Part shown: piece after piece, positions 13,731 to 40,877 of the stretch
How the letters are laid out: each line of letters starts with the position of its first letter
How positions within the stretch are numbered: position 1 is the first letter of the stretch
The notes under the pieces: model-generated
Database searches by the model: none
Told to the model about the DNA's origin: nothing
The model's input: only the letters and a program-made list of their open reading frames with translations
Position numbers and translations under genes: made by a program
Assembly: GCA_964402495.1 (NCBI GenBank)
Contig: CAYODB010000006.1
Coordinates: 1-41,141 of the forward strand
Direction of reading: 5' to 3'
DNA length: 41,141 nt
From: an uncultured Bordetella sp.
GTDB taxonomy: Bacteria > Pseudomonadota > Gammaproteobacteria > Burkholderiales > JACQAP01

Positions 13731-13890
13731 TCTTGAACCACGGAGGACACGGAGGAGAACAAGAAAGATTTCCCCAAAAGGGTGATGTGGTATATGACCC
13801 TTTGCAGACACGGCAAACAATCTGCAGATATTTTTCCCGGCATGTTTTCCTGATTTTCTCCGTGCTCTCCGTGTCCTCCGTGGTTCAAGA
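13731..13890. repeat. CRCRRAG-family inverted-repeat element, complete copy
   Basis: Perfect 24-bp arms tcttgaaccacggaggacacggag (13731-13754) and its reverse complement (13867-13890). Confidence 0.9.
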
Positions 13891-13912
13891 ACTAACAAAG
13901 GGAGAGATAGAA

Positions 13913-14353
13913 ATGATCAAGGTCTATCGAAGCGCCATCATCCATGCGGCGGCGGACAAGGTCTGGAAGCTGATCCGCGACTTCAACGGCCTGCCGAAAT
14001 GGCATCCGGCCATCGCCACCAGCGAGATCGAAGGCGGCCTTCCCGCCGACCAGGTCGGCTGTGTGCGCCGCTTCACGCGCAGGAGCGACGGCGGCCTGTT
14101 GCGCGAGCAGTTGCTCTCGCTCGCGGATGACACCCGCACCCTGACCTACAACATCCTGATATCACCGATGCCGGTGGCGAACTACATGGCCGGCATGCGT
14201 TTCACCCCCATCACCATGGGCGGCGGCACCTTTGCCGAATGGTGGGCAGTGTTCGACGTGACTTCCGGGCCGCCGCAAGTCACCGCTGATGACATCGGCG
14301 ACAACGTATTCGTCGTCGGCTTCGCTTCGATCAATAAGCTGCTCGGACGCTGA
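13913..14353 (+). CDS. SRPBCC / polyketide-cyclase-like ligand-binding protein
   Basis: Start MIKVYRS after GGAGAG; DKVWKLIRDFNGLPKWHP, GCVRRF. Confidence 0.88.
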   Translation: MIKVYRSAIIHAAADKVWKLIRDFNGLPKWHPAIATSEIEGGLPADQVGCVRRFTRRSDGGLLREQLLSLADDTRTLTYNILISPMPVANYMAGMRFTPITMGGGTFAEWWAVFDVTSGPPQVTADDIGDNVFVVGFASINKLLGR

Positions 14354-14363
14354 GGAGCCCACC

Positions 14364-14807
14364 ATGACAAAAATCTTCGTCAGCGCCGTCATCGATGCCC
14401 CCGTCGAAAAGGTGTGGGCCCAGGTGCGCGACTTCAACAACATGCCGGACTGGCATCCGAAATTTTCTCGCAGCCACATCGAAGGCGGGCTGCCCAGCGA
14501 CCAGGTCGGCTGCATCCGCAATTTCGACATTGCCGGGGGTGGCGGCACCATCCGCGAACGCCTGCTTGAACTTTCCGATCTCGAGCACAGTTTCCGCTAT
14601 TGCATCCTGACCTCGCCGCTCCCGGTCGAAGGCTATGTCGCGCAACTGACGCTCTATCCCGTTACGGTCGGCAACAAGACCGTGGGCATCTGGACCGCCG
14701 AGTTCGAAGTCACCAATGGCGACGAGGCCGGCGTCGTGGATGCAGTGGGCAATGGCACCTTCGGCAAGGCTTTCGAGGTTCTGAACGACAGGCTCGCGAA
14801 GCGCTGA
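14364..14807 (+). CDS. SRPBCC / polyketide-cyclase-like ligand-binding protein (tandem paralog)
   Basis: Start MTKIFVS after GAGGAG; EKVWAQVRDFNNMPDWHP; IEGGLP.DQVGC.R.F shared with the previous gene. Confidence 0.88.
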   Translation: MTKIFVSAVIDAPVEKVWAQVRDFNNMPDWHPKFSRSHIEGGLPSDQVGCIRNFDIAGGGGTIRERLLELSDLEHSFRYCILTSPLPVEGYVAQLTLYPVTVGNKTVGIWTAEFEVTNGDEAGVVDAVGNGTFGKAFEVLNDRLAKR

Positions 14808-15058
14808 ACCGTCCGGGTGCCGGCTGGTCGAACATCCATCCGCCTGAATGGGGATGGCACCGCTTATGCAAACGGAGGTTTTAATGAGTCGGGTATTCCT
14901 CAGCGTCCTAATGCTGCCGGGCATGGTCTGAGCTGAGGCGGGTGCCCTTGGCATTTTGAACTGTTTTATGAGGCTCCAGTCTACCCGGAACCATGCAGCT
15001 TCGCGATGGCGACGCGCATGCCATATAACCCGAGAACAACCGGCACAAGGAGCTCACC

Positions 15059-18145: not shown

Positions 18146-18161
18146 CTGCCGATCCAATATC

Positions 18162-19434: not shown

Positions 19435-19461
19435 TCCCTATCTCCACATTTACTTACTGTC

Positions 19462-19670
19462 TTCATCGCAAAGACGCAAAGGAAGGCGAAATGATAGATG
19501 AATGTTCGAGGTACTGGACATATCGGAGGGTGGCGGACAGTCATCGTCTTGCCAGCGATCCTTTTCGGGGAATCTCCATTACCCCGACCCGCACCTTCGC
19601 AGCATTCCGCCCTTTTATATCCCTGTTTTGATCGGTTTCCTTTGCGTAACCTTTGCGCCTTTGCGGTAAA
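19462..19670. repeat. CRCRRAG-family inverted-repeat element, complete copy
   Basis: ttcatcgcaaagacgcaaagg ... cctttgcgcctttgcggtaaa. Confidence 0.8.
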
Positions 19671-19802
19671 GGGCTAAGGTACGACGGCGAAAAACAGAAA
19701 TGCCGCGAAAATCGCCAGGTGCACCACGCCTTGCAGCAACCCGGCGAAGGGAACGATCCAGCTCCAGGCCGGGTTGGTGCGGTTGGCTGCCACGTTGCTG
19801 CC

Positions 19803-20324: not shown

Positions 20325-20434
20325 GGGCAGGCTCTTGATGGGCGAAGTGCGTGATTATGCGGGCTCGGGGCTACGGTTGCCAGCGCAGCCAGCGCCGGGT
20401 GCTTCATCAGTCAGTCACTTAATCCTGAAGCTTC

Positions 20435-20589
20435 TCACCGCGAAGGCGCAAAGGACGCAAAGAACAGCAGTACGGCAAACAACATCAGGTGACACGCGAT
20501 TCTACGAGCACGCATGGTCAATTTCTTCAGCCTGGGTTCTTCCGATTCTTTTTTTGATCTCCTTTGCGTTCTTTGCGCCTTTGCGGTGA
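20435..20589. repeat. CRCRRAG-family inverted-repeat element, complete copy
   Basis: 28-bp arms 20435-20462 and 20562-20589, 26/28 complementary. Confidence 0.88.
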
Positions 20590-20687
20590 AAGGATTCCGG
20601 TTCGAATCAGGAAACTGATGCGCTGCCCGGCGCCGCGGCTTTGTGCTCTAATTCCGTCGTAACCGCAGTGAAACCCACCAAGAGGAA

Positions 20688-29556: not shown

Positions 29557-29580
29557 ACATTCCCTCTCTCAAACTAACTC

Positions 29581-29722
29581 TCACCGCAGAGGACGCGGAG
29601 GAAAGGCAAGAGCAAGAAAGCAAGTTTGGGGGATGCATCTTATTGGCTCACGATCCATTCCAGAGAACGTTGGCCGTTCCTCGCTTTTCTTTTCCTCCGT
29701 GTCCTCTGCGTCCTCCGCGGTT
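29581..29722. repeat. CRCRRAG-family inverted-repeat element, complete copy
   Basis: accgcagaggacgcggagga (29583-29602) vs tcctctgcgtcctccgcggt (29702-29721), 18/20 complementary. Confidence 0.85.
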
Positions 29723-29755
29723 GGCGTTTCGTTTTGTTTACATTCCCGTCCGTCG

Positions 29756-30163
29756 CTATTGAGCTGCGGAAGGGTACAGGAGCTTGAAGGTGCCGGTGGC
29801 CTTGGCGAGCAGCGTGCCGTCCTCGCCGCGCAATTCGCCTTCGGAAAAAATCAGCGAGCGGCCTGCGCGCTGCGCACGCCCTTCTCCGAGAACGGGGCCC
29901 ATCGCGGCCGCGATGAAGTTCACCTTCATTTCCACCGTGAGGGCGCCATTGCAGGTTTCATCCAGTGCCCGCCCCGCGCTGGCCAGCGCCACGTCGAGCA
30001 TGGTCATCAGCACGCCGCCATGCACCGAACCCCAGCTATTCGCCAGTTCCGGACGAGGATCCAGGCGCAGCCTTACCAGGCCGTCGCCCTTTTCCAGGAT
30101 GCGGATTCCAAGATGCTCGACGAAGGGTACATGGATGTTGAACCCTGCTTTCTGCGCGGCCAT
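29756..30163 (-). CDS. PaaI family thioesterase
   Basis: NSWGSVHGGVLMTMLDVA, TVEMKVNF, AKATGTF. Confidence 0.92.
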   Translation of the reverse strand: MAAQKAGFNIHVPFVEHLGIRILEKGDGLVRLRLDPRPELANSWGSVHGGVLMTMLDVALASAGRALDETCNGALTVEMKVNFIAAAMGPVLGEGRAQRAGRSLIFSEGELRGEDGTLLAKATGTFKLLYPSAAQ

Positions 30164-30169
30164 CCGTGC

Positions 30170-30946
30170 CTACATCGAGACCAGGCCGCCATCGACCGCC
30201 ACGATCTGGCCGGTGATGTAGGCGGAGGCATCGGACGCCAGCAGGACTGCCAGTCCTTTCAAATCGAAGTCCGTGCCCAGACGCTTCATTGGCGTCATTT
30301 CCATGATGATCTGCTCGGCCCGGTCGATCATGCCCTGCGACATTTTAGAGGGAAATACACCCGGCGCGATGGCATTCACGGTGATGCCATGGTGCGCCCA
30401 TTCCACCGCCAGCGAGCGGGTGAAGTTGACCACCCCACCCTTGCTGGCGTTGTAGGCGATGGTCGGCATCATGCGCGGATCGGTCCCGACCAGGCCGGCG
30501 ATCGAAGCGAGATTGATGATGCGTCCGTATTTGCGCGGAATCATGCTGAGCTTGCCCACCGTCTGGCTCATCAGGAACACTGCTGTCAGATTCAGATTGA
30601 TGATCTTGTACCAGGCGTCCAGCGGATGGTCCTCTGCCGGCGCACCCCATGCCGCCCCGGCATTGTTGACCAGGATATCGATCTGCCCGTGGCTTTTCAG
30701 GATCTGCTCCACCATCGGCTTCACGGAATCGGTGTCCTGCAGGTCGTTGGTGACCGCGAGCGCATCGATGCTCATGCCGTTCAGGTGCGCCTTCGCCTCC
30801 TCCAGTTCACCGGCCTTGCGTGCGGTGATCACCACTTTGGCGCCCATCTCCCCGAGGGCTTCGGCCATTTGCAATCCCAGACCGCGCGATCCACCTGTAA
30901 TGAGCGCGGTTCTTCCGGACAAGTCGAACAATTTTTTGACGTTCAT
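30170..30946 (-). CDS. SDR family oxidoreductase (gluconate 5-dehydrogenase-like)
   Basis: TGGSRGLG, NNAG, YNASKGG, VNAIAPG, VDGG. Confidence 0.93.
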   Translation of the reverse strand: MNVKKLFDLSGRTALITGGSRGLGLQMAEALGEMGAKVVITARKAGELEEAKAHLNGMSIDALAVTNDLQDTDSVKPMVEQILKSHGQIDILVNNAGAAWGAPAEDHPLDAWYKIINLNLTAVFLMSQTVGKLSMIPRKYGRIINLASIAGLVGTDPRMMPTIAYNASKGGVVNFTRSLAVEWAHHGITVNAIAPGVFPSKMSQGMIDRAEQIIMEMTPMKRLGTDFDLKGLAVLLASDASAYITGQIVAVDGGLVSM

Positions 30947-30967
30947 ATATTCCCCTCAAGAGACGCA

Positions 30968-31001
30968 TTCACCACGAAGGACACGAAGGTACGCAAAGGA
31001 G
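30968..31001. repeat. Left arm of the CRCRRAG family at the left island border
   Basis: ttcaccacgaaggacacgaaggtacgcaaaggag; no convincing partner within the usual ~200 bp. Confidence 0.75.
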
Positions 31002-31303
31002 TTCAAGAACACAACCGGCGCGGAAGCTAAAAAGAAATCGCAGCTATGTACATGAATTAGCGCACGCCAAGACCCGCTTTGGTGTCGACGCGTTGGTATA
31101 AAAAAACACGCGCGCCTACTCCGCGCGATTTGTTGACTTTCCTCTTTGTCTTCGCCTTGCGTGGGGCTGGTGGCACACCGATAGCAACAATGCTCCCAAA
31201 TCAGCGGCACATGTCGATTAGTCAACATGTCTTCCTGTCGTTTACCTGGACCTGGCTGCCGCACCAAGCGCTCGTCTAGCGCTGCGAGAGGCGATGCAAC
31301 CCC

Positions 31304-31888
31304 TTAGTCGCCTTTATTAGGCTTCAATGTGCGCAGCAAGTCCTGCAAGGCCCGAGCATCAGTAGGTTCCTTCGCCAACAGCATGCCCTCAAATTGGAGC
31401 GCATTTTCAGAGAAAAGGATTACTGGGTAGGTGCGCTTGCCTTCCTCTGGCAGATTTGGCTTAGAGGTTCCCTGGATGAATTTTCTAACTACTGTTGTCT
31501 CCATGACGACTGGCTCAGACCCTGCCGGGTACAAGCGTAGCGTGAACGGACCACTGGTTAGACCAGGCGTCGCGACACTCCAGAGACGCCAAAAATAATG
31601 GGTGCCATACGAACCACGCATTTCGGTTAGTGACGCTTCTATGAAGCCGGTTTTTTCTTCCGCGTATAGAAAGATAGTTTCATGCTCTGGCAAAAAGACC
31701 ATCGCTAGGTTGCGACCATCCTTGCCATGTATTGCGTATGTGGTTGGTTCCGGTGGAGGAGACCAAACTGTGACGATGCAGCCCTTAAGGCCAAAAAAAA
31801 CGATAACCACAACAAACGCGGCGATTCCGACTTTAGGAAGGATCGACACTATTTGCAATTGGCCACGCTTGGCGAAACTCAAGTGCAC
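31304..31888 (-). CDS. Hypothetical protein with N-terminal membrane anchor
   Basis: 194-aa ORF with hydrophobic VGIAAFVVVIVFFGL segment; start uncertain. Confidence 0.6.
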   Translation of the reverse strand: MHLSFAKRGQLQIVSILPKVGIAAFVVVIVFFGLKGCIVTVWSPPPEPTTYAIHGKDGRNLAMVFLPEHETIFLYAEEKTGFIEASLTEMRGSYGTHYFWRLWSVATPGLTSGPFTLRLYPAGSEPVVMETTVVRKFIQGTSKPNLPEEGKRTYPVILFSENALQFEGMLLAKEPTDARALQDLLRTLKPNKGD

Positions 31889-31900
31889 TCCTCAACGCGG

Positions 31901-32107
31901 CTACGTCGGATTCACATGGTTCATGTGTGCGAACTCCCCTTGTGCGAGAGCGTCGGGCTTCTTCAACTTATACCGTAGTCGCGCGTTCTCGGAGGAAGTT
32001 AGCATTTCGGAATCCCATGAGGCATTCGGCGAAGGCGAGGGCGAGGGCTGGAAGTACTTTGCGCGATACCTTTCTGCTGTCTCGGTATTGTGATCCCTTA
32101 ACCTCAA
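31901..32107 (-). CDS. Short hypothetical ORF, possibly a gene fragment
   Basis: 68 aa, TTG start overlapping the upstream stop by 4 nt. Confidence 0.3.
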   Translation of the reverse strand: MRLRDHNTETAERYRAKYFQPSPSPSPNASWDSEMLTSSENARLRYKLKKPDALAQGEFAHMNHVNPT

Positions 32108-32655
32108 CTTCCTCCCCTGCGATCATCTGGCCTCCCAGCAAGAACCCATCTGACCATCTCTAATATACACACCATCGTTTGCGATGGCGGAGCCTTTAGC
32201 TTTTCTATGGCGAGCGGATCGTTGTGGATTGACTTGGCAACAAGCTCGGCGTCAACGATGTTCTTGCCGTTAACTTCAATGCCGAACGCCTCCAAGTCTT
32301 CCGGCGTGGTAATCATGTCCATGTATTTCGGGTCGTTGACTCCGAGTGCGTCAGCATAAGCGTTCATTTCGCGCGCGAGCTTTTGTTCCCGTGCCTGCTT
32401 TTCTTTTTCTTCCTCCGTCAACTCCGAATAGGGTTTCCGGTGATTTGAATAATGGTGGCGATTCTGAAATAGACCGTCGTACATTTTCCGTTGAAGCGCC
32501 GTCGCGCCACCATCTTCCGCCATTTCTTCAGCAGTGAGATAGCCATGCTCATGCAGCTTCGCAACCATTTCCCTCAGGCTTAAGCCATCGTCCCTGAGCA
32601 CGAATCCTACACCCGCGATACAGACATTCTTCATTGCCTTCGCCTCCTGACTCAT
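32104..32655 (-). CDS. Hypothetical protein, possibly a fragment of a mobile-element protein
   Basis: 183 aa, charged and helical (EEEKEKQAREQKLAREM); no recognised motif. Confidence 0.5.
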   Translation of the reverse strand: MSQEAKAMKNVCIAGVGFVLRDDGLSLREMVAKLHEHGYLTAEEMAEDGGATALQRKMYDGLFQNRHHYSNHRKPYSELTEEEKEKQAREQKLAREMNAYADALGVNDPKYMDMITTPEDLEAFGIEVNGKNIVDAELVAKSIHNDPLAIEKLKAPPSQTMVCILEMVRWVLAGRPDDRRGGS

Positions 32656-32725
32656 CCAGGTCGTCCAATTCGACCAGGTGACCGTGAGCGCCGCCTCTGA
32701 TGGAGACCGGAGCAGCCCTTAAGGT

Positions 32726-33433
32726 TCACTGACTACCGTCCCGTGACTTTTTCTTCATCAGTAGATGCACCGCTTCGATAACCAATAGGGGATGGCCGCG
32801 AGGGCATATTAGTCGAGCGAAATTCCAGCCTGGGCGACCACGATCGTCCTTTGGAACAAGTGCTCCGGTAGGAAAGGTCTCCCGGCATTGAAGGCACCGG
32901 ACCTTTCCCTCGCCTGCGCGGATGAGGTCGTCTGCAACGTACTTAAACCTCGTCCATGCAGATGGAACCGGGGTAAGGTGGTGTTGTGCCTCGTTTCTGC
33001 TTTGAACCCAATTAAGTAGGGCGCCTTCCTCATCGCGCGCTAAATGCGGGTGCTCTTGAAGCTTCTCAAGGAGAAAGCGTTCAACATTTGATGCGTGAAA
33101 ATGGAATTCACCGAATGTTTCATCGCCTTCTTCGTTCTCCGGCTTGTACGTGACAATGGCTTCGCAAGCAGGTGGCGTCGTCCAAAGCTGATCTCGTGTG
33201 CGCGTACGCGCCGCCAAATCATAATCGTCCTCAAAGAGCGTGCTTGGGCTAAGAAGCGCCTTTGGCCTAAATGCCGTCAGTGGCCATAGGACAGAGAAAA
33301 AGATGAACGTCGTCCAGATTTGAAGTTTATTGAAGTGCCAGTCGTAGCCATCCAGCCGACGAAGCATGTGCCACCCAAGGCGCGACGCGACGAGCAATGC
33401 TCCGGCAAGGTAGGTGTACAAGATGGCAGTCAT
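32726..33433 (-). CDS. Hypothetical membrane protein with C-terminal zinc-ribbon-like motif
   Basis: Two N-terminal hydrophobic segments; CLQC...CPRGH near the C-terminus. Confidence 0.65.
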   Translation of the reverse strand: MTAILYTYLAGALLVASRLGWHMLRRLDGYDWHFNKLQIWTTFIFFSVLWPLTAFRPKALLSPSTLFEDDYDLAARTRTRDQLWTTPPACEAIVTYKPENEEGDETFGEFHFHASNVERFLLEKLQEHPHLARDEEGALLNWVQSRNEAQHHLTPVPSAWTRFKYVADDLIRAGEGKVRCLQCRETFPTGALVPKDDRGRPGWNFARLICPRGHPLLVIEAVHLLMKKKSRDGSQ

Positions 33434-33469
33434 CGCTTCGTCTGTGCCGGCTTCGTTCAATCGGGTGAC

Positions 33470-33907
33470 TTACGTTTGCCCCAAACGCAATAGGTCTCGG
33501 ATTAGCGCATTCATTGACGAAGCGCTGGTCAGTTTGGCACGGTTCATTTTTCCACCCATCACGGCTCTGTTGACGCGATCCTTGAGGACATAGGGCAGCT
33601 TTGCATCTGCTGCAGACAGGCGAAAATGCTCCTCTGCCCGTTGTTCAAGAGTCCAGTAGTAGAAAGGAAACTGTCGTCGCACTTTCTCTGCGGCTTCCTC
33701 TTCGGAAAGACCGTCGTTCTGTATGAACTTCTGAAGCGCGCCCACAAGGAAAACGTTGTCAGTTTTCTCAAAGAGCTTACAGTCAGCGAGCGACAAGCTT
33801 GCCCACCACTCGTCGTCCTCGGTGCGAACGAGCGCCTTGTCTTCTGGGTGAATTTCACAGGTAGGGGCAGGCTGCTTGGGCCCAAATAGCTTAGCAAAGA
33901 ATCCCAT
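33470..33907 (-). CDS. Hypothetical protein
   Basis: MGFFAKLFGPK start after a strong AGGAGAGG RBS. Confidence 0.7.
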   Translation of the reverse strand: MGFFAKLFGPKQPAPTCEIHPEDKALVRTEDDEWWASLSLADCKLFEKTDNVFLVGALQKFIQNDGLSEEEAAEKVRRQFPFYYWTLEQRAEEHFRLSAADAKLPYVLKDRVNRAVMGGKMNRAKLTSASSMNALIRDLLRLGQT

Positions 33908-34012
33908 AGTTTCCTCTCCTTGTTTCCACATGGCGCTGACGGGCTCAGACTAACAACGAGGCGCTCTTCACGAATGAGGTTCGTTAGAGTCTTGCTATCG
34001 AGCAAGCGGCCT

Positions 34013-34354
34013 TCAACTGGTAGATACAACGTCGACGTATGAAGCGCAGCCCACGACTGTTCCTACGACTATCGCGAAGATAGCGCGCTTATGCAAAGGC
34101 AACACTGTTGGAGACTCCTTTGGAGGGAGACCGGCGAGAGTGATGGCGAACCAGACAGCTGTAAAAAACGGCGGGTTAATTGAACTGCCCAATATGCGAT
34201 GCAAGAGCATATTTGCCACAGCGAGCACGCCGACAAAGACTACCCATGGCCAGCCGGAGTGATAGGACCCGAGATTGTTAAGGCTGACCCTGGCAATAGT
34301 AAAGAGGACGAAAGTACCAACGAGCACTTTTGCGACCCCGTAGATGAAGTCCAT
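34013..34354 (-). CDS. Hypothetical small multi-pass membrane protein
   Basis: MDFIYGVAKVLVG start after GGGAG; about four hydrophobic segments. Confidence 0.6.
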   Translation of the reverse strand: MDFIYGVAKVLVGTFVLFTIARVSLNNLGSYHSGWPWVVFVGVLAVANMLLHRILGSSINPPFFTAVWFAITLAGLPPKESPTVLPLHKRAIFAIVVGTVVGCASYVDVVSTS

Positions 34355-34401
34355 GCGCTGCTCCCACAAACTACATTTAAATAGTGCGTCGAAGCAATAC
34401 G

Positions 34402-34659
34402 TCAGTCCTTCCTGCGTTCCACCTTGTTTATGCGGCTTCCTGGCGGGAGAGACTTCAGCCATTCAACGAGGTCATCATAGCTAATTTGGGTCTCCGTGGA
34501 CTCGCACCCAAAAATATGTTCGAAACGAGTCGCCAGACGCAATCGCTTGAGGAGTCTGGTTGTTTCGCCGAGAATCGTCTTGCGCTGCTCAGGTGGAAGT
34601 TTTGCGAGACGGTCTTCGTGTTCCTTGCTGATGCTGTCGGATTCCAATTTATCCCCCAT
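34402..34659 (-). CDS. Hypothetical protein (85 aa)
   Basis: Protein-like ORF, but the ATG sits just after a strong hairpin with no RBS. Confidence 0.4.
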   Translation of the reverse strand: MGDKLESDSISKEHEDRLAKLPPEQRKTILGETTRLLKRLRLATRFEHIFGCESTETQISYDDLVEWLKSLPPGSRINKVERRKD

Positions 34660-34663
34660 TAGG

Positions 34664-34685
34664 CCTGGCGGCTTTCGCCGCCAGG
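34664..34685. terminator. Strong GNRA-capped hairpin after the small peptide ORF
   Basis: CCTGGCGGC-GAAA-GCCGCCAGG (minus strand); no long U-tract. Confidence 0.5.
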
Positions 34686-34692
34686 GTTGTGA

Positions 34693-34776
34693 CTAGCTGA
34701 AGAAGAGCATGAGCAGCGCCAGCATGTACTGGAACTGCCTGTAGCTCAACTTCAACTTGAGCGTAAGCTCAATCAT
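34693..34776 (-). CDS. 27-aa hydrophobic peptide, candidate type I toxin-like small protein
   Basis: MIELTLKLKLSYRQFQYMLALLMLFFS; GGGAG 5 nt upstream of the ATG; structured leader. Confidence 0.5.
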   Translation of the reverse strand: MIELTLKLKLSYRQFQYMLALLMLFFS

Positions 34777-35091
34777 GGTTACTCCCATGAATGAGCGACC
34801 GCCCAGGCCTGGAACGATCGCGGTTTTATCCGTGGCCGTTCTTGGGGTGGCTACGATGGTGACCGGGCGCAGTGCGCACTGCGTGCCGGGCATCTTGGCC
34901 GCGCGTCGCGTAGCGGACCTTCGCTACGAAGGAATATCCCCGTGGGCGCCCAAGAGATCGGGCGTCGGCAGGGATTCCAATCTTTAAGCGTTTATGATTT
35001 TACGCTTGCGTGGAAGAAATTCCCGCGGAAAAAGTCTTATCTCCGGATGCGCGACCTGCCTGTTCTCGCTCTCATTTTGTTCAAGTTGGTT

Positions 35092-35132
35092 CTCCTTCGC
35101 GTACCTTTGCGTCCTTTGCGTTCCCCGCGGTT
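35092..35132. repeat. Right arm of the CRCRRAG family at the right island border
   Basis: ctccttcgcgtacctttgcgtcctttgcgttccccgcggtt; inner 25 nt are 22/25 complementary to 30977-31001. Confidence 0.75.
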
Positions 35133-35134
35133 AT

Positions 35135-36943
35135 TTAGAACCATCCGTCCTGCATCTCCAGCGTCGTGCGATCCAGGCTGGTGAGCAACTCGTGCCATTG
35201 CCTGGTCTTCGGCAGTTCCCAGCGGAAAAACCAGGCACAGGCCTGCAGTTTGCCCTGGTAGAAATCCTTCTCTTCCGCATCTGCGGCGCCGACTTTCTTC
35301 ACGGCAACCAACGCCTGCCGCAGCCAGATCCAGGACAGTATGGTGTGTCCGACGAGATCAAGGTAGACCGATGCATTCGCCAGGCCGAGGTCGACTTCGC
35401 CACGGCCGGTCACGCAGAGCAGGTTGCGCGTAACGTCCATGACCCGATCCAGGGCTTCATTCAGGGCCTCGCCGCTGCGGCGCAACTCCTCCGAATCGCA
35501 GGCCCGGGCTTCACGCACCACGCCATTGATCTCGCGCGCGAGCAACTGGATTCCGGCGCCGTCGGCCATGCCGGCCTTGCGGCCCAGGAGGTCGATGGCC
35601 TGGATGCCGTTGGTGCCCTCGTGGATCGGATTGAGCCGGTTGTCACGATAGAACTGCTCGACGGGATACTCGCGGGTATAGCCATAGCCGCCGTGCACCT
35701 GGATCGCCAGGCTGTTGGCCTCAAGGCAGTAGTGCGAGGGCCAGGCCTTCGCGACCGGCGTCAGGATTTCGAGTAGCAGGCTGGCATTGCGGCGCGCCTT
35801 TTCGTCTTCGGAGGTATGGGCTTCATCCACCAGGCTCGCGCAGTACAGGCAAAGCGCCAGCGCGCCTTCGACATAGGCTTTCTGCGCCAGCAACATGCGC
35901 CTCACGTCGGCATGTTCGATGATCCTCACCGGGGGCAGGCTCGGATCCTTGCCGCCGGGCAAACGGCCTTGGGGCCGCTGGCGGGCGTAGTCGAGCGCAT
36001 GCAGATAGCCGGTATAACCCAGAACGGTCGCACCCATGCCGACACCGATGCGAGCCTCGTTCATCATCTGGAACATATACGCGAGTCCCTTGTCTGGTTC
36101 GCCGATCAGTTCCGCCCAGGCGCCGCCCTGCTCGCCGAAATTCAGCACGCAGTTGGTGGTGCCGCGGAAACCCATCTTGTGGTTGAGCCCGGCCAGCGCC
36201 ACATCGTTGCGCTCCGCGCGCGAGCCGTCGTCGTTGACCCTGAATTTAGGAACGATGAAAAGGGAAATTCCCTTTACGCCGGCCGGCGCACCCTTGATGC
36301 GCGCCAGCACCAGGTGAATGATGTTTTCGGAGAGCTCATGGTCGCCACCGGAGATCCACATCTTGTTGCCCGTGATGCGATAACTGCCGTCGCCCTGCGG
36401 ATGCGCCGTCGTGCGCACATCGCCAAGCGAAGAGCCTGCCTGAGGCTCGGACAGGCACATCGTACCGAAATAGCGTCCGTCCAGCAGGGACGGCAGGTAG
36501 CGCTGCCTCTGCTGCTCCGTCCCAAAGGCACGGATCAGGTTGGCGTTGGCGATGGTAAGAAAGGGATAGGCGGCGGTCGATACATTGGCCGCATTGAACC
36601 AGGCGAAACAGGCCTGCGCGACGGTCCAGGGCAGTTGCATGCCACCGAGTTCGAAGTCCTGCGACGCCGACATGAAACCCGCCTTGCGGAAGGCTTCCAG
36701 CGCTTCGCCCACCTCCGGGATCATTTCGACCTTGCCGCCGACAAAGTGCGGTTCGTTGAGGTCGGCCTTGCGGTTGTGGGGAGCGAATTTTTCTTCGGAG
36801 ATTCTCGCTGCGGTTTCGAGCGCGGCGTCGAACGTTTCTCGCGAATGATCCGCGAACCGCGGCCGCTGCGTCAGCGACTCGATGTCGAGGAATTCGTAGA
36901 GAACGAACTCCATGTCCCGGCGGTTCAGCAATTTCGACTGCAT
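35135..36943 (-). CDS. Acyl-CoA dehydrogenase (long ~600 aa type)
   Basis: GTMCLSEPQAGS, GNKMWISGG, HKMG, MMNEARI, QVHGGYGY, IHEGTNGIQ. Confidence 0.95.
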   Translation of the reverse strand: MQSKLLNRRDMEFVLYEFLDIESLTQRPRFADHSRETFDAALETAARISEEKFAPHNRKADLNEPHFVGGKVEMIPEVGEALEAFRKAGFMSASQDFELGGMQLPWTVAQACFAWFNAANVSTAAYPFLTIANANLIRAFGTEQQRQRYLPSLLDGRYFGTMCLSEPQAGSSLGDVRTTAHPQGDGSYRITGNKMWISGGDHELSENIIHLVLARIKGAPAGVKGISLFIVPKFRVNDDGSRAERNDVALAGLNHKMGFRGTTNCVLNFGEQGGAWAELIGEPDKGLAYMFQMMNEARIGVGMGATVLGYTGYLHALDYARQRPQGRLPGGKDPSLPPVRIIEHADVRRMLLAQKAYVEGALALCLYCASLVDEAHTSEDEKARRNASLLLEILTPVAKAWPSHYCLEANSLAIQVHGGYGYTREYPVEQFYRDNRLNPIHEGTNGIQAIDLLGRKAGMADGAGIQLLAREINGVVREARACDSEELRRSGEALNEALDRVMDVTRNLLCVTGRGEVDLGLANASVYLDLVGHTILSWIWLRQALVAVKKVGAADAEEKDFYQGKLQACAWFFRWELPKTRQWHELLTSLDRTTLEMQDGWF

Positions 36944-36980
36944 TTCGGTTTTCCTTCAGCCGCCGGAACAAGCAACCCCT

Positions 36981-37176
36981 TCACCGCAAAGGCGCAAAGG
37001 GAAGAGAAAGGTACGCAAAGGAGAGCCTGACATAACAGCAAGTAACGTCCCGAATTGTCGAAACCCAGCAAACAGGGGCACGTTCGACACAGTTCATATC
37101 CGCTATCGTGCGTACTTACGCCCTGCCTTTCTTTGCGTTCCTTTGCGTCCTTTGCGCCTTTGCGCCTTTGCGGTGA
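36981..37176. repeat. CRCRRAG-family inverted-repeat element, complete copy
   Basis: Perfect 20-bp arms tcaccgcaaaggcgcaaagg / cctttgcgcctttgcggtga, with extra ctttgcg units on the right. Confidence 0.9.
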
Positions 37177-37186
37177 GGTATAGGTC

Positions 37187-38365
37187 TTAGACGACTTCGA
37201 ACAGGCCGGCGGCACCCATGCCACCGCCAACGCACATGGTGACGACGACGTACTTGACACCGCGGCGCTTGCCTTCGATCAGGGCATGACCGACCAGCCT
37301 GCTGCCGGTGACGCCATAGGGATGGCCGACGGCGATGGAACCGCCATTGACGTTGAGGCGATCGTTGGGAATGCCAAGCTTGTCGCGGCAGTAGATCACC
37401 TGCACGGCAAAAGCCTCGTTCAGTTCCCACAAGCCGATGTCCTCGATTTTCTTGCCAGCTTGCTTCAGCAGCTTGGGGATGGCGAACACCGGGCCGATGC
37501 CCATTTCATCGGGTTCGCACCCGGCGACGGCGAAACCGCGGAAGATACCCATCGGCTTCAATCCCTTCTTCGAGGCCATGCGGTCGCTCATGAGGACCTG
37601 CACCGAAGCCCCGTCGGAAAACTGGCTGGCATTGCCGGCGGCGATCACGCCGCCTTCGACTGCGGGCTTGATCTGCGAGATGCCCTCGTACGTCGTGTCC
37701 GGGCGAATGCCCTCGTCCTCGCTCGCCGTGGTCTGTTTGGTAGATTCCTGACCGGTGTTCTTGTCGACCACTTTCATGGTGGTCGGAATCGGAACGATCT
37801 CGTCCTTGAACTTGCCTTCCGCCCGCGCCTTCGCCGCCTTCAACTGGCTGTCCACGCCGTAACGGTCCTGGACCTCGCGGCCGATCTTGTAGCGCTTCGC
37901 CACATTCTCGGCGGTAGCCAGCATGGGCCAGTAGATTTCGGGCTTGTTCTCCTTCAGCCAGGAATCCGTGATCATGTGCTTGTTCATCTCGTTCTGTACG
38001 CAGGAGATGGACTCGACGCCGCCGGCCAGGAAAATCTCCGCTTCGCCGGCCAGGATGCGCTGCGCCGCCAGCGCCACGGTCTGCAGGCCGGATGAACAAA
38101 AGCGATTGACGGTCATGCCGGACACCGTCACGGGCATGCCTGCGCGCAATGCAATCTGGCGCGCGATGTTCTGGCCTGTCGCCCCTTCGGGCGTCGCACA
38201 GCCCATGATCACGTCCTCGACCTCGGCTGGATCGAGTTTCGCCCGCTCGAGTGCCGCCTTGACGACGTGTCCACCCATGGTCGCGCCGTGGGTCATGTTG
38301 AGCGCGCCTTTCCAGCTCTTGCAGAGCGGCGTGCGCGCGGTCGAAACAATCACTGCATCAGTCAT
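37187..38365 (-). CDS. Acetyl-CoA C-acyltransferase (3-ketoacyl-CoA thiolase)
   Basis: [30 protein letters not shown]. Confidence 0.95.
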
Positions 38366-38385
38366 TTCAAGCCTCCAATAAAATC

Positions 38386-38564
38386 TGAACCACGGAGGAC
38401 ACGGATACCCTCGCGCAGCGTGGAGTACCCTTTTAGATCACGGAGGAAAATGAGGCATGACAGCACCGGACACTTGCCGGAAATCGCCCAGTGGATGCAG
38501 CGATATCGTTCACGTCTGTTTCGTCCTTTCCCTTCTCCGTGCCCTCCGTGTCCTCCGTGGTTCA
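38386..38564. repeat. CRCRRAG-family inverted-repeat element with a micro-insertion in the left arm
   Basis: Perfect 20-bp arms tgaaccacggaggacacgga / tccgtgtcctccgtggttca; 30-bp insert at 38406-38435. Confidence 0.88.
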
Positions 38565-38568
38565 AGAA

Positions 38569-40668
38569 CTAGCTGTTAAATTTCTTGCCTTCGGCTGCAA
38601 GCCTCTCGAGCAGCGGCGCCGGCTTCCAGAATTCGCCATGCTTCTCGTGAAAGCGCTTCACCGAAGCCAGCACTTTGTCCAGGCCGACGGTATCGGCATG
38701 GAACATCGGCCCGCCGCGGAAACGCGGAAAGCCGTAGCCGTAGATGTAGACGATGTCGATGTCGCTGGCGCGCAGCGCGATGCCTTCCTCGAGGATCTCC
38801 GCGCCTTCATTGACCAGCGCGTAAATGCAACGCTCGAGGATTTCCTGGTCGCTGATCTGGCGGCGCTGGAGACCGGCTTCCTTCGAAGCCTTCACGATCA
38901 GTTCCTCGACCACCGGATCGGGAATCGGGTTGCGGTTGCCGGCTTCGTAACGGTACCAGCCGGCGCCGGTCTTCTGGCCGAAACGGCCGAGCTCGCAGAC
39001 CTGGTCCGCCACTTTCGAGTAACGCAGGTGCGCCGGCCGCGTTGCTGCCTGGCGCTTGCGGATGTACCAGCCGACGTCTAGCCCGGCCAGGTCGCCGACC
39101 CGGAATGGGCCCATGGCGAAGCCGAAATCCTCGATGACCTTGTCCACCTGTTGCGGCAGTGCGCCTTCCTCGAGCAGGAACCCTGCTTCGCGGAAATAGC
39201 CGTGCAGCATGCGGTTGCCGATGAAACCGTCGCACACGCCGGCGACGACGCCGACTTTCTTGATGGCCTTCGACAGCTTCAACGCCGTGGCGAGCACGTC
39301 CTTGCCGGTCTTGTCGGCCCGCACGACTTCCAGTAGCTTCATTACGTTCGCCGGACTGAAGAAATGCAACCCGAGTACGTCCTGCGGACGCGAGGTCGCG
39401 GCGGCAATCTCGTTCACGTCGAGCGTGGAAGTGTTGGTGGCGAGGATGGCTCCCCGCTTGGCCACCTTGTCGAGTTTTTCGAACACCTGCTTCTTGACGG
39501 CCATGTCCTCGAATACGGCCTCGATGATGATGTCCGCATCCTTGATATCCTCGTAGCTGGTGACACCGGTGAACAGGGCCATGCGCTTGTCCATGGCTTC
39601 CTGGCTCAGGCGGCCCTTGGCGACCGTGGCGGCGTAATTTTTGCGAACGATGCCCAGCCCCTTGTCCAGTGCCTCCTGGTTCACTTCGAGCATTTTCACG
39701 GGAATGCCGGCGTTGACGAAGTTCATCGCAATGCCGCCGCCCATGGTGCCCGCGCCGATCAATGCCGCGGATTTTATTTCGCGTACCGGCGTATCGTCGG
39801 CTACGTCCGGAATCTTGCTGACCTGGCGTTCGGCGAAGAACAGGTGCCGCAGCGCGCGGGATTCATCGGTTTTCACCAGCTTCTCGAACTGCTGGCGCTC
39901 GAACGCGACGCCTTTGGCAAAGGGCAGGCTGGTCACCGCTTCTACGCAGGAAGTAATCGCCAGGGGCGCCGGGAAACCCCGCCACGCCTTGGCGATGCGC
40001 TCGCGTGCCGCCGCGAAGAAAGCCTCCGCCGGCTGGTCCGGCACGGCATCCATCTGACTGGCACGGCGCACGCCCTTGCCTTCCTTGATGAGCCGGTTGG
40101 CATAGGAGATCGCCGCGGCACGCAGGTCGCCTGTGACAACCTCATCCACGAGACCGGACTCTTTCGCCTTTTCGCTGGAAATCGGATCGCCGGTCACCAT
40201 GAAATCCAGCGCCTTCTCCACTCCCATCAGTCGCGGCGCGCGCTGGGTTCCGCCGGCACCCGGAAGGATGCCTAGCTTCACTTCGGGCAGGGCGATCTGG
40301 GCGCCGGTCAGCGCGATCCGGTAGTGGCAGCCCAGGGCCAGTTCCAGTCCCCCGCCCATGGTGGGGCCGGATATCGCCGCGACAATCGGCTTGGTGACCG
40401 TGTCCATGTAGGCCAGCGCGTCGGGCAGGGTCGCCTTGCCGGGCTCGTAAGGCTTGCCGAATTCGCTGATGTCGGCGCCGCCGCTGAAATTGCGCCCGCC
40501 GCCGATGATCACGAGCGCGCGGATGTGGTGGTCGTGGTCGCCTTCCTTGAGGGCATCGAGGATGCCCTGAACCACGCCCTTGTTCACCGACAGCGCGTTG
40601 ACCGGCGGATTGTTGAGCGTGATGACGCCTATGCTGCCCTGCTTCTGGTACTCGACGAGACTGGTCAT
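38569..40668 (-). CDS. Bifunctional enoyl-CoA hydratase / 3-hydroxyacyl-CoA dehydrogenase
   Basis: NPPVNAL, GGGLELAL, PEVKLGILPGAGGTQR, IGAGTMGGGIA, EAVFE, NTSTL, HFFSPAN; ATG 40668 after GGAGG. Confidence 0.95.
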   Translation of the reverse strand: MTSLVEYQKQGSIGVITLNNPPVNALSVNKGVVQGILDALKEGDHDHHIRALVIIGGGRNFSGGADISEFGKPYEPGKATLPDALAYMDTVTKPIVAAISGPTMGGGLELALGCHYRIALTGAQIALPEVKLGILPGAGGTQRAPRLMGVEKALDFMVTGDPISSEKAKESGLVDEVVTGDLRAAAISYANRLIKEGKGVRRASQMDAVPDQPAEAFFAAARERIAKAWRGFPAPLAITSCVEAVTSLPFAKGVAFERQQFEKLVKTDESRALRHLFFAERQVSKIPDVADDTPVREIKSAALIGAGTMGGGIAMNFVNAGIPVKMLEVNQEALDKGLGIVRKNYAATVAKGRLSQEAMDKRMALFTGVTSYEDIKDADIIIEAVFEDMAVKKQVFEKLDKVAKRGAILATNTSTLDVNEIAAATSRPQDVLGLHFFSPANVMKLLEVVRADKTGKDVLATALKLSKAIKKVGVVAGVCDGFIGNRMLHGYFREAGFLLEEGALPQQVDKVIEDFGFAMGPFRVGDLAGLDVGWYIRKRQAATRPAHLRYSKVADQVCELGRFGQKTGAGWYRYEAGNRNPIPDPVVEELIVKASKEAGLQRRQISDQEILERCIYALVNEGAEILEEGIALRASDIDIVYIYGYGFPRFRGGPMFHADTVGLDKVLASVKRFHEKHGEFWKPAPLLERLAAEGKKFNS

Positions 40669-40693
40669 TGAACCTCCAAAATCGGAAAACCCG

Positions 40694-40877
40694 GAACCAC
40701 GGAGGGCGCGGAGGGGCACGGAGGAAAAGCGAGGAGAAAAATGGGAATGGATTGCGATATGAGCGCCATTCAGGATCTGGGTGTCCGGATAGCATGGATC
40801 GTACAGCCGACAGCACTCTTACTTCGTTCGTATCTCTCTCTTGTCGTTCTCCGTGCTCTCCGTGCCCTCCGTGGTTC
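40694..40877. repeat. CRCRRAG-family inverted-repeat element, complete copy
   Basis: gaaccacggagggcgcggaggggcacggag ... ctccgtgctctccgtgccctccgtggttc. Confidence 0.87.

Follow-up and report, generated by a model that had tools for sequence, protein, structure and literature searches.

Gene-less hairpin elements with tandem CRCRRAG-unit arms in a Bordetella sp. genome, probable members of a selfish family with a GxxExxY gene-bearing form

The window, i.e. the whole 41,141-nt stretch of DNA from an uncultured Bordetella sp. that was analysed, contains seven complete CRCRRAG-armed elements (Table 1). They had been predicted from the letters of the DNA; all seven were re-read at their positions and their arms were recovered by a repeat finder. 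The recovered arm pairs are 13727-13754 / 13867-13894 (28 nt, 96% complementary), 20424-20469 / 20555-20600, 36981-37000 / 37157-37176 and 38386-38405 / 38545-38564 (both 100% complementary), and the pairs starting at 19474 / 19632, 29585 / 29686 and 40687 / 40858. As predicted, the arms start with ACC in six elements and with ATC in the 19462 element, and the 28 letters of 13867-13894 are identical to those of 38544-38571. The unit variants, too, vary among the elements and agree, in register, inside each of them.

The 13727-13894 element is flanked by the stop codon of the 12899-13729 ORF and a same-strand downstream gene, and has a predicted RNA fold energy of -74.4 kcal/mol. The 36981-37176 element lies between the stop codon of a thiolase gene and the start of an acyl-CoA dehydrogenase gene. 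Six of the seven window elements are positioned between co-oriented genes, as had been claimed for most copies. This is not a special preference, however, because the genome-wide share (98 of 132, or 74%) is close to the 69% baseline of neighbouring gene pairs. The claim that elements often abut stop codons agrees with the genome-wide data: an element starts a median of 12 nt past the upstream stop codon, and within 30 nt of it in 81 of 98 cases, these distances and the co-orientation figures resting on crude gene calls made for this analysis. The left arm of the 38386 element harbors a nested insert, the ends of which are uncertain by 1-2 nt. The insert is missing from the orthologous element of the relative G020, the core of which is alignable. 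The units of the 9137-9235 hairpin resemble the arms around a four-helix-bundle gene on contig C221.

Table 1. Features of the window that belong to, or resemble, the tandem-unit elements.
Feature	Position	Strand	Evidence
Solo two-unit pyrimidine arm	3061..3079		arm scan
Hairpin, different unit family (GTGAAGG/GGGGAAGG units), short loop	9137..9235		repeat finder
Gene-less element, CACGGAG subtype, TTGAAC ends	13727..13894		sequence, repeat finder
Gene-less element, CGCAAAG subtype, sole ATC-starting arm	19461..19671		sequence, repeat finder, fold
Gene-less element, CGCGAAG/CGCAAAG subtype, between divergent genes	20424..20600		sequence, repeat finder, G048 comparison
Gene-less element, CGCAGAG/CGCGGAG subtype; its core, truncated, belongs to core family A	29581..29722		sequence, repeat finder, relatives
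Purine-rich arm (TCAC CACGAAG GA CACGAAG GTA CGCAAAG G), partner of 35090-35127	30968..30998		sequence, arm pairing
4.1-kb low-GC interior, about six orphan ORFs	30999..35089	-	sequence, depth, relatives
Pyrimidine-rich arm, partner of 30968-30998	35090..35127		arm pairing, G011 comparison
Gene-less element, CGCAAAG subtype	36981..37176		sequence, repeat finder, relatives
Gene-less element, CACGGAG subtype	38386..38564		sequence, repeat finder, relatives
32-nt nested insert (ATACCCT...GGAGTACCCTTTTAG) splitting one arm unit	38405..38436	+	sequence, G020 comparison
Gene-less element, CACGGAG/CGCGGAG subtype	40694..40877		sequence, repeat finder, relatives

Arms that had been described as unpaired, 30968-30998 and 35090-35127, turned out to be partners around a 4.1-kb interior. 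Both have the same GA/GTA spacer pattern, and they mismatch at R positions only. This is the only long-range arm pair in the assembly. The interior has a GC content of 0.50-0.54 and is strain-variable, the read depth being 0 over 31006-35007 in runs X10 and X14. Its ORFs are without a Pfam or PADLOC match, and neither a recombinase nor an integrase was found within the brackets or next to them. At either end of the interior, the outermost 60-70 nt are what is left of an older short core, in which the island is centred. The relative G011 retains that core in a short element, one arm of which is orthologous to 35090-35127, and G048 has a 180-nt short element at the site. The arms thus did not bring the 4.1-kb interior in, because it sits mid-way in an older core. 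Loops do accept further DNA, as is seen from this island and from nested elements in brackets on contigs C292 and C94.

A genome scan with the arm pattern yielded 378 arms of at least two units, whereas a mononucleotide shuffle gave 20. The three-unit pattern has 281 occurrences in this genome, compared to 4 for the pattern read backwards. An arm consists of an ACC start followed by 2-5 units C-R-C-R-R-A-G(G), spaced 8-9 nt apart, and the termini are subtype-specific (TTGAAC-CACGGAG and TYTCAC-CGCARAG). The purine-rich arm is always 5', whichever strand is read; of the 141 pairs of neighbouring arms on opposite strands, 140 have it first. The stems are ~35 bp long, with complementarity and purine skew fading gradually inward, and 67% of the stem mismatches are transitions. 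The short form keeps ~40 nt at each end, which enclose a decaying A-rich/T-rich inner arm and a ~70-nt core. No target-site duplication was found beyond the control.

No ORF at all is present in 136 of 140 elements. The interiors are mutually unrelated, as predicted: blastn leaves 124 of 140 as singletons and nhmmer 115, 123 have no second copy in the genome, and the families found have 11, 4, 4, 2, 2 and 2 members. Their predicted AT-richness is partly correct. The mean GC content is 0.507 compared to 0.616 for the genome, but the AT-rich part is the decayed inner arm, and the central core is at ~0.54. Interior lengths are narrow (mostly 90-150 nt), and their predicted folding is not better than that of shuffled sequences (mean z -0.15). 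The ends, rather than the whole length, are conserved, as had been proposed; among the 40 element pairs whose ends are most alike, only one has similar cores. Between pairs of loci, 72-77 of 84 end positions are identical, and these include letters that are not part of a unit. Core family A (~90 nt) recurs at different sites, in either orientation, and is bracketed by CACGGAG, CGCAGAG or CACAGAG arms.

Gene-bearing versions with a GxxExxY (PD-(D/E)xK) gene had also been proposed, and all four GxxExxY matches of this genome are inside paired CRCRRAG arms. Two are intact, one is frameshifted and one is cut to 42 codons. The full-length cassette is about 440-490 bp long and holds a 125-residue GxxExxY protein (TIGR04256, 2.3e-40; PF13366, 4.9e-39) tightly between inverted arms. 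Each of the three commonest arm subtypes of the genome has a gene-bearing copy: CACGGAG on contig C5, CGCRGAG on C61 and C264, and CGCAAAG on C294. Inverted arms above the best shuffled control surround 66 of 79 testable GxxExxY loci from many phyla. At least two exact CRCRRAG units are present in 53 of these 66, and in 52 the arms are at most 60 nt from the gene on both sides. The unit consensus is conserved across phyla. No literature tying GxxExxY to such arms was found.

The residues E27, Y30, E31, D67, E77 and K79 are invariant among 48 GxxExxY sequences. Judged by its structure model (pLDDT 96.3), which has the PD-(D/E)xK fold, the protein is predicted to be a minimal nuclease of this fold with intact catalytic residues. 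Cas4 is among its nearest folds (Z 8.1), these matches being generic for the superfamily. The nuclease cannot be the general engine, however, because brackets of this kind also surround PF05635 genes, which encode four-helix-bundle proteins rather than nucleases (27 of 29 loci in the genus). The arm count and the GxxExxY count per genome correlate with a rho of 0.41. No GxxExxY gene is seen in three of 29 arm-rich genomes (G012, G042 and G047), all of them draft assemblies. Neither of the two GxxExxY genes of G048 lies in a copy of that genome's commonest subtype, CACAGAG, which accounts for 37 of the first 100 arms listed. None of the six Y1_Tnp genes of the present genome has CRCRRAG arms within 1.2 kb.

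Across 37 genomes of the genus, between 5 and 453 three-unit arms were counted per genome; the backwards-pattern control gave 0-8. Empty and swapped orthologous sites, which the original prediction had proposed to look for in relatives, were both found. The elements are thus not a static set, because such sites exist in addition to the gene-bearing copies. In four fad-operon spacers, some species have no element and others have different subtypes; the 36981-37176 site is empty in G003, G007 and G014 and has other subtypes in other species, and G001, G022 and G034 are empty at the 40694-40877 site, with 0-4 nt. In G048, the closest relative, one window site is empty (20424-20600, with 10 nt compared to 249 nt here), four have the CACAGAG type instead, and at one the element is conserved. 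Empty, filled and swapped sites are seen even in a relative with genes 85-95% identical. The site of the C5 cassette contains the gene in four genomes and is empty in six; it has a short element of another subtype in G048 and at least five further unit families in other genomes. The G048 orthologue of the 29581 element is longer by one arm unit (9 nt) and by 37 nt of core, and retains the core with 2 substitutions in about 140 aligned positions. The same element is missing from a ~98% identical strain contig (run X14), which has 13 other letters instead. The spacer sequence outside the arms also differs between the present genome, G000, and G048. Recombination with other strains (allelic replacement) could explain some of the swaps without transposition.

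With a probability of about 0.6, the seven elements are gene-less members of a selfish 'tandem-unit hairpin cassette' family, the full form of which carries the GxxExxY gene. They are best read as intervening-sequence-like, foldback-like selfish DNA, and the cassette is apparently mobile. Of the predicted mobile unit with conserved arms and a cargo interior, the first part is supported by the gene-bearing copies, the empty or swapped sites and the conserved ends. The reading of the interior as exchangeable cargo is less likely, as the 29581 core is kept in G048 and the 4.1-kb interior lies inside an older core. The elements would spread and be replaced as DNA, and their arms may act in cis, as sites whose sequence is recognized by a host factor or by the nuclease of the element itself. 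New copies would preferentially land in short spacers already holding a hairpin. The loop would be the fragile point, with a sequence that turns over through breakage, deletion and insertion, which may be why only the ends remain recognizable. In operon transcripts the ~35-bp stems are, by analogy to rRNA intervening sequences, probably RNase III substrates, which would be a side effect and not the cause of the elements' persistence. Cores shared between copies would be expected from a copy-and-paste mechanism, but 115-124 of 140 are unique, and neutral decay alone does not predict the narrow 90-150 nt interiors. Transposition, an excision product and cleavage were not seen.

It is unlikely that the host keeps the hairpins for an RNA job, in which RNase III cutting or an exonuclease block sets the levels of neighbouring genes and the gene-bearing forms are a side branch. 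Most copies are indeed in operon-like co-oriented runs just past stop codons, and the whole-element folds are stable (median -84 kcal/mol). According to the portions of the literature cited here, RNase III cuts similarly built rRNA intervening sequences in the middle of their stem (PMC4990558), and comparably placed Xanthomonas heptamer repeats are mostly transcribed (PMC4692102). However, G:U-type and A:C-type mismatches, relative to transcription, are balanced (106 versus 93 genome-wide and 35 versus 49 on the sense strand of the gene), so there is no RNA-wobble bias. Such a job also sits poorly with a spacer that is empty in some species and contains unrelated subtypes in others, with the range of arm counts inside one genus, and with a co-oriented share close to the baseline. 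Static intrinsic terminators, or other fixed regulatory hairpins, would account for stable stems at gene ends but are hardly conceivable here: the terminator scan flagged no element, no T run follows the right arms of the window elements, the elements lie inside operons, and the empty and swapped orthologous sites contradict fixed hairpins.

The near-identical ends around unrelated cores, the mixed arms of core family A and the variably present 4.1-kb island would suit a portable capture bracket, in which a nuclease or recombinase acting at the arms or loop swaps true cargo and the arms are landing pads for foreign DNA; the Cas4 match fits as well. This is quite improbable, however, because inverted sites would give inversion of the segment rather than excision, the lack of second copies for 123 of 140 cores leaves no donors in sight, and the fold match is a generic one. 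The single long-range pair, the central position of the island in its older core, its ORFs without matches and the missing recombinase argue in the same direction. It is very doubtful that the arms arise locally as simple-sequence repeats (by slippage and hairpin-templated copying at fragile spacers), rather than through movement of a defined element, and are alike by convergence on a favoured unit. Unit number does vary among orthologues (the 9-nt unit at 29581), long one-sided arrays exist (e.g. eight units on C264), the arms decay gradually inward, and the published heptamer repeats are read, in the part of PMC4692102 cited, as structural and G-quadruplex-forming. Nevertheless, the unit consensus, the ACC start and the 5-6-nt subtype termini recur at hundreds of loci, across phyla and beside one gene family, and CRCRRAG units have no G runs needed for a quadruplex. 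The end-identity data, which include non-unit letters, suggest within-genome bursts of near-identical copies.

MITEs (Correia/NEMIS, ERIC and RUP) are short, non-autonomous, intergenic elements with terminal inverted repeats that arise in lineage-specific bursts. Their copies share the whole length and make target duplications, whereas the elements described here share only ~40 nt per end and make none. REP and REPIN sequences, mobilized by RAYT transposases, are short palindromes present by the hundreds in intergenic DNA, in many cases as inverted doublets. They make no target duplications and are linked to a single small gene that has the repeats on its own flanks. The elements are similarly numerous, intergenic, inverted and free of duplications, with one small associated gene. 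This gene is not an HUH tyrosine transposase, however, the arms are tandem units and not a single palindrome, and the cores are unrelated. Drosophila foldback (FB) transposons have long inverted arms of tandem short repeats, better conserved at their outer ends, and heterogeneous central loops that sometimes carry genes. In arms, outer ends and loops the elements would resemble FB transposons, which, however, occur in eukaryotes and are much longer; homology is not implied.

The GGGNATC heptamers of Xanthomonas and Nostoc are described, in the portion of Rehm et al. 2015 (PMC4692102) cited here, as tandem 7-nt units of variable number in non-coding DNA, frequently as inverted pairs that converge (70-75 cases). 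They occur where ORFs are aligned and no more than 50 bp from stop codons; few are found where ORFs diverge. They are interpreted as G-quadruplex formers generally unlinked to mobile elements. Tandem units, inverted pairs, proximity to stop codons and variable unit number are common to both systems. However, CRCRRAG units lack G-tracts, and the cited portion of PMC4692102 mentions no S23p or GxxExxY gene.

Intervening sequences of 23S rRNA in Coxiella and Leptospira have, according to the cited part of PMC4990558, a small promoter-less S23p (four-helix-bundle) ORF and terminal inverted repeats that form a ~28 bp stem. The Coxiella arm is made of tandem short repeats (GACAGAT heptamers); the ORF is decaying, and a mobile element is suspected as the so far unexplained origin of the intervening sequences. 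The elements described here lie between protein-coding genes instead of in rRNA, their unit is CRCRRAG with 8-9 nt spacing, their ORF is PD-(D/E)xK nuclease-like and missing from 136 of 140 copies, and they are known from sequence, whereas RNase III cutting is known for the intervening sequences. Nevertheless, both are built as a small ORF between inverted arms of tandem short repeats, and 27 of the 29 PF05635 genes in the genus are armed likewise.

The seven gene-less hairpins of the window were each read where they had been predicted to lie, and a repeat finder gave an arm pair for every one of them. As had been claimed, the arms start with ACC in six elements and with ATC in one, and segments 13867-13894 and 38544-38571 are identical over 28 nt. 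All seven elements sit between protein-coding ORFs. The genome to which the window belongs, as contig C6 (G000), is a draft of 4.09 Mb with a GC content of 0.616 and 6.3% contamination, and its genes were called crudely within this analysis. Hairpin repeats probably fragment draft assemblies, and this one is in 406 contigs. It contains 378 arms with at least two CRCRRAG units at a spacing of 7-11 nt, compared with 20 in a mononucleotide shuffle. This set yields 141 neighbouring pairs, catalogued as a purine arm followed by a pyrimidine arm; the purine-rich arm comes first in 140 of them and second in one, an order that is true on both strands because the repeat is inverted. Interior lengths bunch at 90-150 nt. 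In 140 refined pairs the medians are 35 nt for the stem, 103 nt for the interior and 177 nt for the whole element, and an arm has two to five units. Mismatches occupy 473 of the 4,934 stem positions, two-thirds of them being transitions, as in ordinary mutation. The CRCRRAG-arm family is real, abundant and quick to turn over.

The termini outside the first unit differ between subtypes, which are named by their units: TTGAAC precedes CACGGAG, and TYTCAC precedes CGCARAG. Arm complementarity is 0.92 at the tips and drops gradually to background about 45-50 nt inward, and the purine content falls from 0.8 to 0.5 across the same span. The AT-rich zone is a decayed inner arm, and the central core has a GC content of about 0.54. 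Whole elements fold with a median energy of -84 kcal/mol. One-sided arrays of units also occur, with eight CGCAGAGGG units at C264:4570-4640 of G000 and at least seven CGCAAAGGC units at G019:C52:7492-7552, a genus relative. The arms are therefore able to grow like simple-sequence repeats.

A GxxExxY protein is encoded within three of the paired-arm elements, in interiors 391-423 nt long. It scores 137.6 bits against TIGR04256 (cut-off 35; E-value 2.3e-40) and 133.8 bits against PF13366 (PDDEXK_3; cut-off 22; E-value 4.9e-39). All four matches to the GxxExxY profile in G000 lie inside catalogued arm pairs, and their arms belong to the three commonest subtypes of the genome. Outside this genome, 80 GxxExxY loci with a protein identity of 44-55% were fetched from Betaproteobacteria, Chloroflexota, Planctomycetota, Acidobacteriota, Bacteroidota, Cyanobacteria, Methanothrix and others, and 79 were testable. 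Inverted arms above the best shuffled control were found at 66 of the 79; 53 of these 66 contain at least two exact CRCRRAG units, and in 52 each flank of the gene has an arm at a distance of at most 60 nt. The original prediction had suggested that similar arms flank small GxxExxY genes, and this link was right. Across phyla the C, C, A and G of the unit are fixed and the three purine positions are free. Since distant loci share it, the unit is far more deeply conserved than the DNA sequence of the protein. The CRCRRAG hairpins are best interpreted as GxxExxY hairpin cassettes that lack the gene.

Residues E27, Y30, E31, D67, E77 and K79 are invariant in all 48 aligned GxxExxY sequences, and the PD-(D/E)xK catalytic set (helix Glu, Asp, Glu-x-Lys) is present as E27, D67, E77 and K79. 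The structure model has a pLDDT of 96.3. Its top VIA-align matches are the nuclease domains of BpuSI (Z 8.3), Cas4 (Z 8.1) and Hjc (Z 6.4), which are generic for PD-(D/E)xK. The sequence of the protein matched nothing in the Protein Data Bank, and a Foldseek search with the model gave nothing at E <= 0.001. At least 7,994 homologues exist at E <= 1e-5, the closest named ones among the matches listed being from Burkholderiales MAGs. The function of PF13366 is given as unknown (PMC3424549). The literature on GxxExxY, PF13366, intervening sequences and heptamer repeats, searched outside supplementary files, gave no link of these genes to such arms. In a cassette of the relative G007 (locus L216, G007:C35:2170-3170) the left end, comprising the arm and the first ~40 codons, and the right end are tandemly duplicated, so that the cassette has the appearance of one copy nested in another or of slippage.

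A second gene family is found in the same setting. Three PF05635 genes of G000 (four-helix-bundle, '23S rRNA IVS protein') are bracketed likewise, by other units, and the family is present in 32 of 37 genus genomes. Tandem-unit inverted arms above control accompany 27 of the 29 PF05635 loci analysed, one locus from the unpublished genome G049 having been left out of the count beforehand. Their units include GGGGATT, CGTGAATGY, GAGGGRC and TAGGGAA. The GTGAAGG, GGGRCTAG and GACGAGA hairpins bracket PF05635 genes and are also found gene-less. Genes for GxxExxY proteins and for the four-helix-bundle (23S rRNA intervening-sequence) proteins rank among the most frequent small genes of bacteria that lack an explanation. 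A tie of both families to hairpin brackets would account for the nature of these genes, for the source of rRNA intervening sequences, and for the long hairpins that fill the operon spacers of some genomes.

Locations of the elements, cassettes, inserts and empty sites. G000 is the present genome, other G numbers are genus relatives, C numbers are contigs, and letter pairs are spacers between genes of the fad operon.
Feature	Location	Detail
Gene-less hairpin	window, start 13731	
Gene-less hairpin	window, start 19462	
Gene-less hairpin	window, start 20435	
Gene-less hairpin	window, start 29581	
Gene-less hairpin	window, start 36981	B/A spacer
Gene-less hairpin	window, start 38386	
Gene-less hairpin	window, start 40694	D/C spacer
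fad operon	window 30170-41141	minus strand
Island, left arm	window 30968-30998	
Island, interior	window 30999-35089	A/Z spacer
Island, right arm	window 35090-35127	
GxxExxY copy	G000 C5	intact
GxxExxY copy	G000 C61	intact
GxxExxY copy	G000 C294	frameshifted
GxxExxY copy	G000 C264	short element, first 42 codons left
Core family A	G005 and G020	D/C spacer
Core family A	G012	C5 site
Core family A	G002	B/A spacer
Core family A	G000 C95	
Core family A	window 29628-29676	
Arm-splitting insert	window 38405-38436	
Arm-splitting insert	G000 C2, C5, C13, C35, C44, C51, C55, C56, C61 etc.	
Arm-splitting insert	G000 C77, C90, C94, C113, C114, others	further contigs
Empty B/A spacer	G003, G007, G014	34-40 nt
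Empty D/C spacer	G001, G022, G034	0-4 nt
Empty A/Z spacer	G010, G024, G003, G007	15-56 nt
PF05635-side hairpin	window 9137-9235	
PF05635-side hairpin	G000 C221:730-1110	
PF05635-side hairpin	G000 C324:2900-3364	
PF05635-side hairpin	G000 C27:1780-2240	

The structural insight of the original prediction, that the pairing arms are conserved around unrelated interiors, was right. Interiors are singletons in 124 of 140 elements by blastn and in 115 of 140 by nhmmer, and the families that do exist have 11, 4 (the gene), 4, 2, 2 and 2 members. The 40 pairs of elements with the most alike 42-nt ends share 72-77 of 84 end positions, and the cores of one of these 40 exceed the 99th percentile of a shuffled null, a frequency equal to that in random pairs (2%). 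Shared ends with unrelated cores set the elements apart from REP or MITE copies. The further idea that the interior is exchangeable cargo was borne out only in part: core family A, about 90 nt long, occurs within varied arm subtypes, at varied sites and in both orientations, and 123 of the 140 interiors are without another copy in G000. A source of cores elsewhere in this genome was rejected because 17 of 140 have any non-self match, mostly to other elements. Short cores could also be leftovers of the gene, as the truncated C264 copy is, but recognisable remnants are confined to 4 of the 140 elements, a six-frame hmmsearch with the GxxExxY profile having given no trace in the other 136, and this origin was likewise rejected. 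Rates were compared between arms, cores and four-fold sites of the thiolase gene. In the closest pairs this gene has a four-fold identity of 0.73-0.75, compared with 0.37 at saturation, and the cores of the same pairs are at shuffle level and the arms at 0.77-0.83; a single gene is a weak clock, too weak to say that cores evolve faster than neutral sequence. Hypermutation is unlikely, because the core of the 29581 element is conserved in G048, the closest relative. The evidence favours changes within the loop instead, examples being the loss of 37 nt at 29581, elements nested on contigs C292 and C94, and the island described below. One of the few near-identical pairs of whole elements, C5:22292-22516 and C303:2287-2429 of G000 (93.75% over 144 nt), reflects either recent copying or redundant strain sequence within the draft.

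A role in RNA was considered in several forms. If pairing were kept in RNA, G:U pairs would be expected to exceed A:C pairs on the transcribed strand. No such excess was found, the counts being 106 versus 93 in elements between co-oriented genes and 35 versus 49 for the sense strand of the GxxExxY gene at 42 armed loci. The other 24 of the 66 armed loci were left out, since their best arm either begins with the pyrimidine side or lies over 60 nt away from the gene. With both tests of wobble asymmetry null, selection on pairing at the RNA level was rejected. The cores were rejected as structured RNA as well: interiors fold no better than their shuffles (mean z -0.15, with 5% below -2), an Rfam scan of the window gave no family at gathering score, the only matches around 29581 being plant miRNA precursors at chance level, and core family A has no covariation in an alignment of just three sequences. 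Intrinsic terminators have a short GC-rich stem, a small loop and a T run. What comes after the right arms is GGTTCAAG or GGTGA and not a T run, and none of the elements was called in a terminator scan, so this class was set aside too. At the DNA level, the distribution of flanking direct repeats equals that of the control and gives no sign of target-site duplication.

Insertions into existing elements were found. The arms of the island pair with each other, having GA and GTA spacers in common and mismatches confined to R positions. The 4.1-kb interior between them has a GC content of 0.50-0.54 and about six orphan ORFs (194, 183, 244, 153, 149 and 85 aa), none of which is an integrase or matches Pfam or PADLOC families with a useful score. 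Sequencing runs X10 and X14 cover the flanks and have zero depth over 31006-35007, and G048 has a 180-nt short element at the site in place of the island. In the relative G011 the arm and core of a short element correspond to the outermost 60-70 nt on either side of the G000 interior, from which it follows that the island was inserted mid-core into an element already present. Another insert is only 32-38 nt long, with the sequence ATACCCT ... GGAGTACCCTTTTAG in three variants. It splits units at CRCRR^AG, and with respect to the purine strand it always points the same way. Of the 58 matches to GGAGTACCC, about 47 carry the insert, and nearly all of those 47 are inside arms. The genus genomes have 0-45 occurrences of its 15-mer each, 28 of the 37 having at least one, and the control gives 0; some arm-rich genomes, for example G043, lack the insert, as does the orthologous element of G020. 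The insert resembles a minute parasite living on the arms.

Among the 37 genus genomes, three-unit arms number from 5, 6, 12 and 16 up to 415, 432 and 453 per genome, compared with 0-8 for a backwards-pattern control. GxxExxY genes are present in 29 of the 37, and arm counts correlate with gene counts (rho 0.41) at p = 0.011, a value calculated ignoring kinship and too favourable because the genomes are kin. A GxxExxY search in three arm-rich draft genomes found no gene. The genus tallies take in the unpublished G049, and no claim depends on that genome alone. Every spacer of the fad operon is empty in some species, and in others the spacers are occupied by CACGGAG, CGCAAAG, CGCAGAG, CACGAAG, CACAGAG or GTGAAKG types. 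The site of the C5 cassette has the gene in four genomes, short elements of another subtype in G048 and G023, hairpins of at least five other unit families in further genomes, and nothing in six. Decayed arms at orthologous sites, for example the right arm in G017 and the D/C spacers of G002 and G018, show that resident copies erode. In G016 and G011 (loci L003 and L004) the spacer between fad genes A and Z contains a second copy of a 5' piece from the downstream gene (atgaacgtcaagaaactgttcgat...), either next to an element or replacing one, which suggests imprecise repair there. The B/A spacer of G022 (locus L024) has another palindromic repeat, ccctctccac...gtggagaggg with ggggcggggtgagg words, at a place where other species have CRCRRAG elements.

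Turnover is also evident at closer range. Genes of G048 are 85-95% identical to those of G000. Its 20435 site is empty, and its 29581 element is kept with two substitutions in ~140 aligned positions, one more arm unit and 37 nt of extra core. All four of its fad spacers have CACAGAG-type elements with unrelated cores, and the outer spacer sequence is also different. The CACAGAG subtype makes up 37 of the first 100 arms listed for G048 versus 30 of 651 in G000, and CACGGAG makes up 3 of the first 100 versus 136 of 651. In a strain contig from run X14 that is about 98% identical, differing at 14 of 636 letters, window positions 29557-29771 are replaced by 13 other letters. The genes flanking the 29581 site are 13 nt apart in that strain, with the stop codon overlapping the ribosome-binding site. 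In G000 the element-bearing stretch of 215 nt provides a new tail for the upstream gene and, for the downstream gene, a new ribosome-binding region. Of the contig joints, the one from 29556 to 29772 was used, together with the depth gap over the island; most joints have only 21-30 letters on one side and were disregarded because they come from other copies sharing the arms. A metagenome scan with the thiolase found relatives of at most 90% protein identity, not closer than the genus genomes, and these were left aside. The elements alter the spacing and the ribosome-binding regions between operon genes, and they flag sites of fast turnover between close relatives.

It is conceivable, though improbable (we would put it at roughly 15%), that the bracket is a working device instead of mere debris. 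The arms, with their fixed C, C, A and G and three free purine positions, would be an address read by the small GxxExxY nuclease, the loop between them would be a programmed break point, and the brackets would serve as scattered landing pads at which DNA could be captured, exchanged or lost. Such a device would explain near-identical ends with unique cores, whole elements replaced in place, and a 4.1-kb foreign island exactly in a loop. It would be a prokaryotic foldback-type element and a new kind of nuclease-guided turnover, and would account for rRNA intervening sequences too. Should its specificity be confirmed, a 125-residue predicted nuclease whose repeat address can be read would make an interesting tool.

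The 23S rRNA intervening sequence is the nearest described system. The Coxiella example has a 28-bp stem, tandem GACAGAT heptamers and an RNase III cut in mid-stem, and its origin is described there as unknown (PMC4990558). Terminal inverted repeats, a long stem and tandem short repeats in the arm are common to both. Unlike the intervening sequence, the window elements are between protein-coding ORFs and not in a 23S helix. They carry GxxExxY or nothing, not S23p (PF05635), the arms of which are made of other units. The nearest described gene-less repeats are the GGGNATC heptamers of Xanthomonas, which often form inverted pairs near stop codons, are read as G-quadruplex formers and are not linked by the authors to mobile elements or to any gene (PMC4692102). 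The CRCRRAG units differ from them in lacking GGG tracts and in having a period of 8-9 nt instead of a 7-nt spacing. Unlike REP/REPIN-RAYT systems, the arms are not beside HUH (Y1) transposase genes, none of the six PF01797 (Y1 transposase) matches in G000 having CRCRRAG arms within 1.2 kb. The elements resemble MITEs in their terminal inverted repeats, but have neither target-site duplication nor whole-length similarity between copies. Where a MITE has an autonomous partner, a gene-bearing form exists here, although its protein is not a known transposase. The CRCRRAG elements also resemble the foldback elements of eukaryotes.
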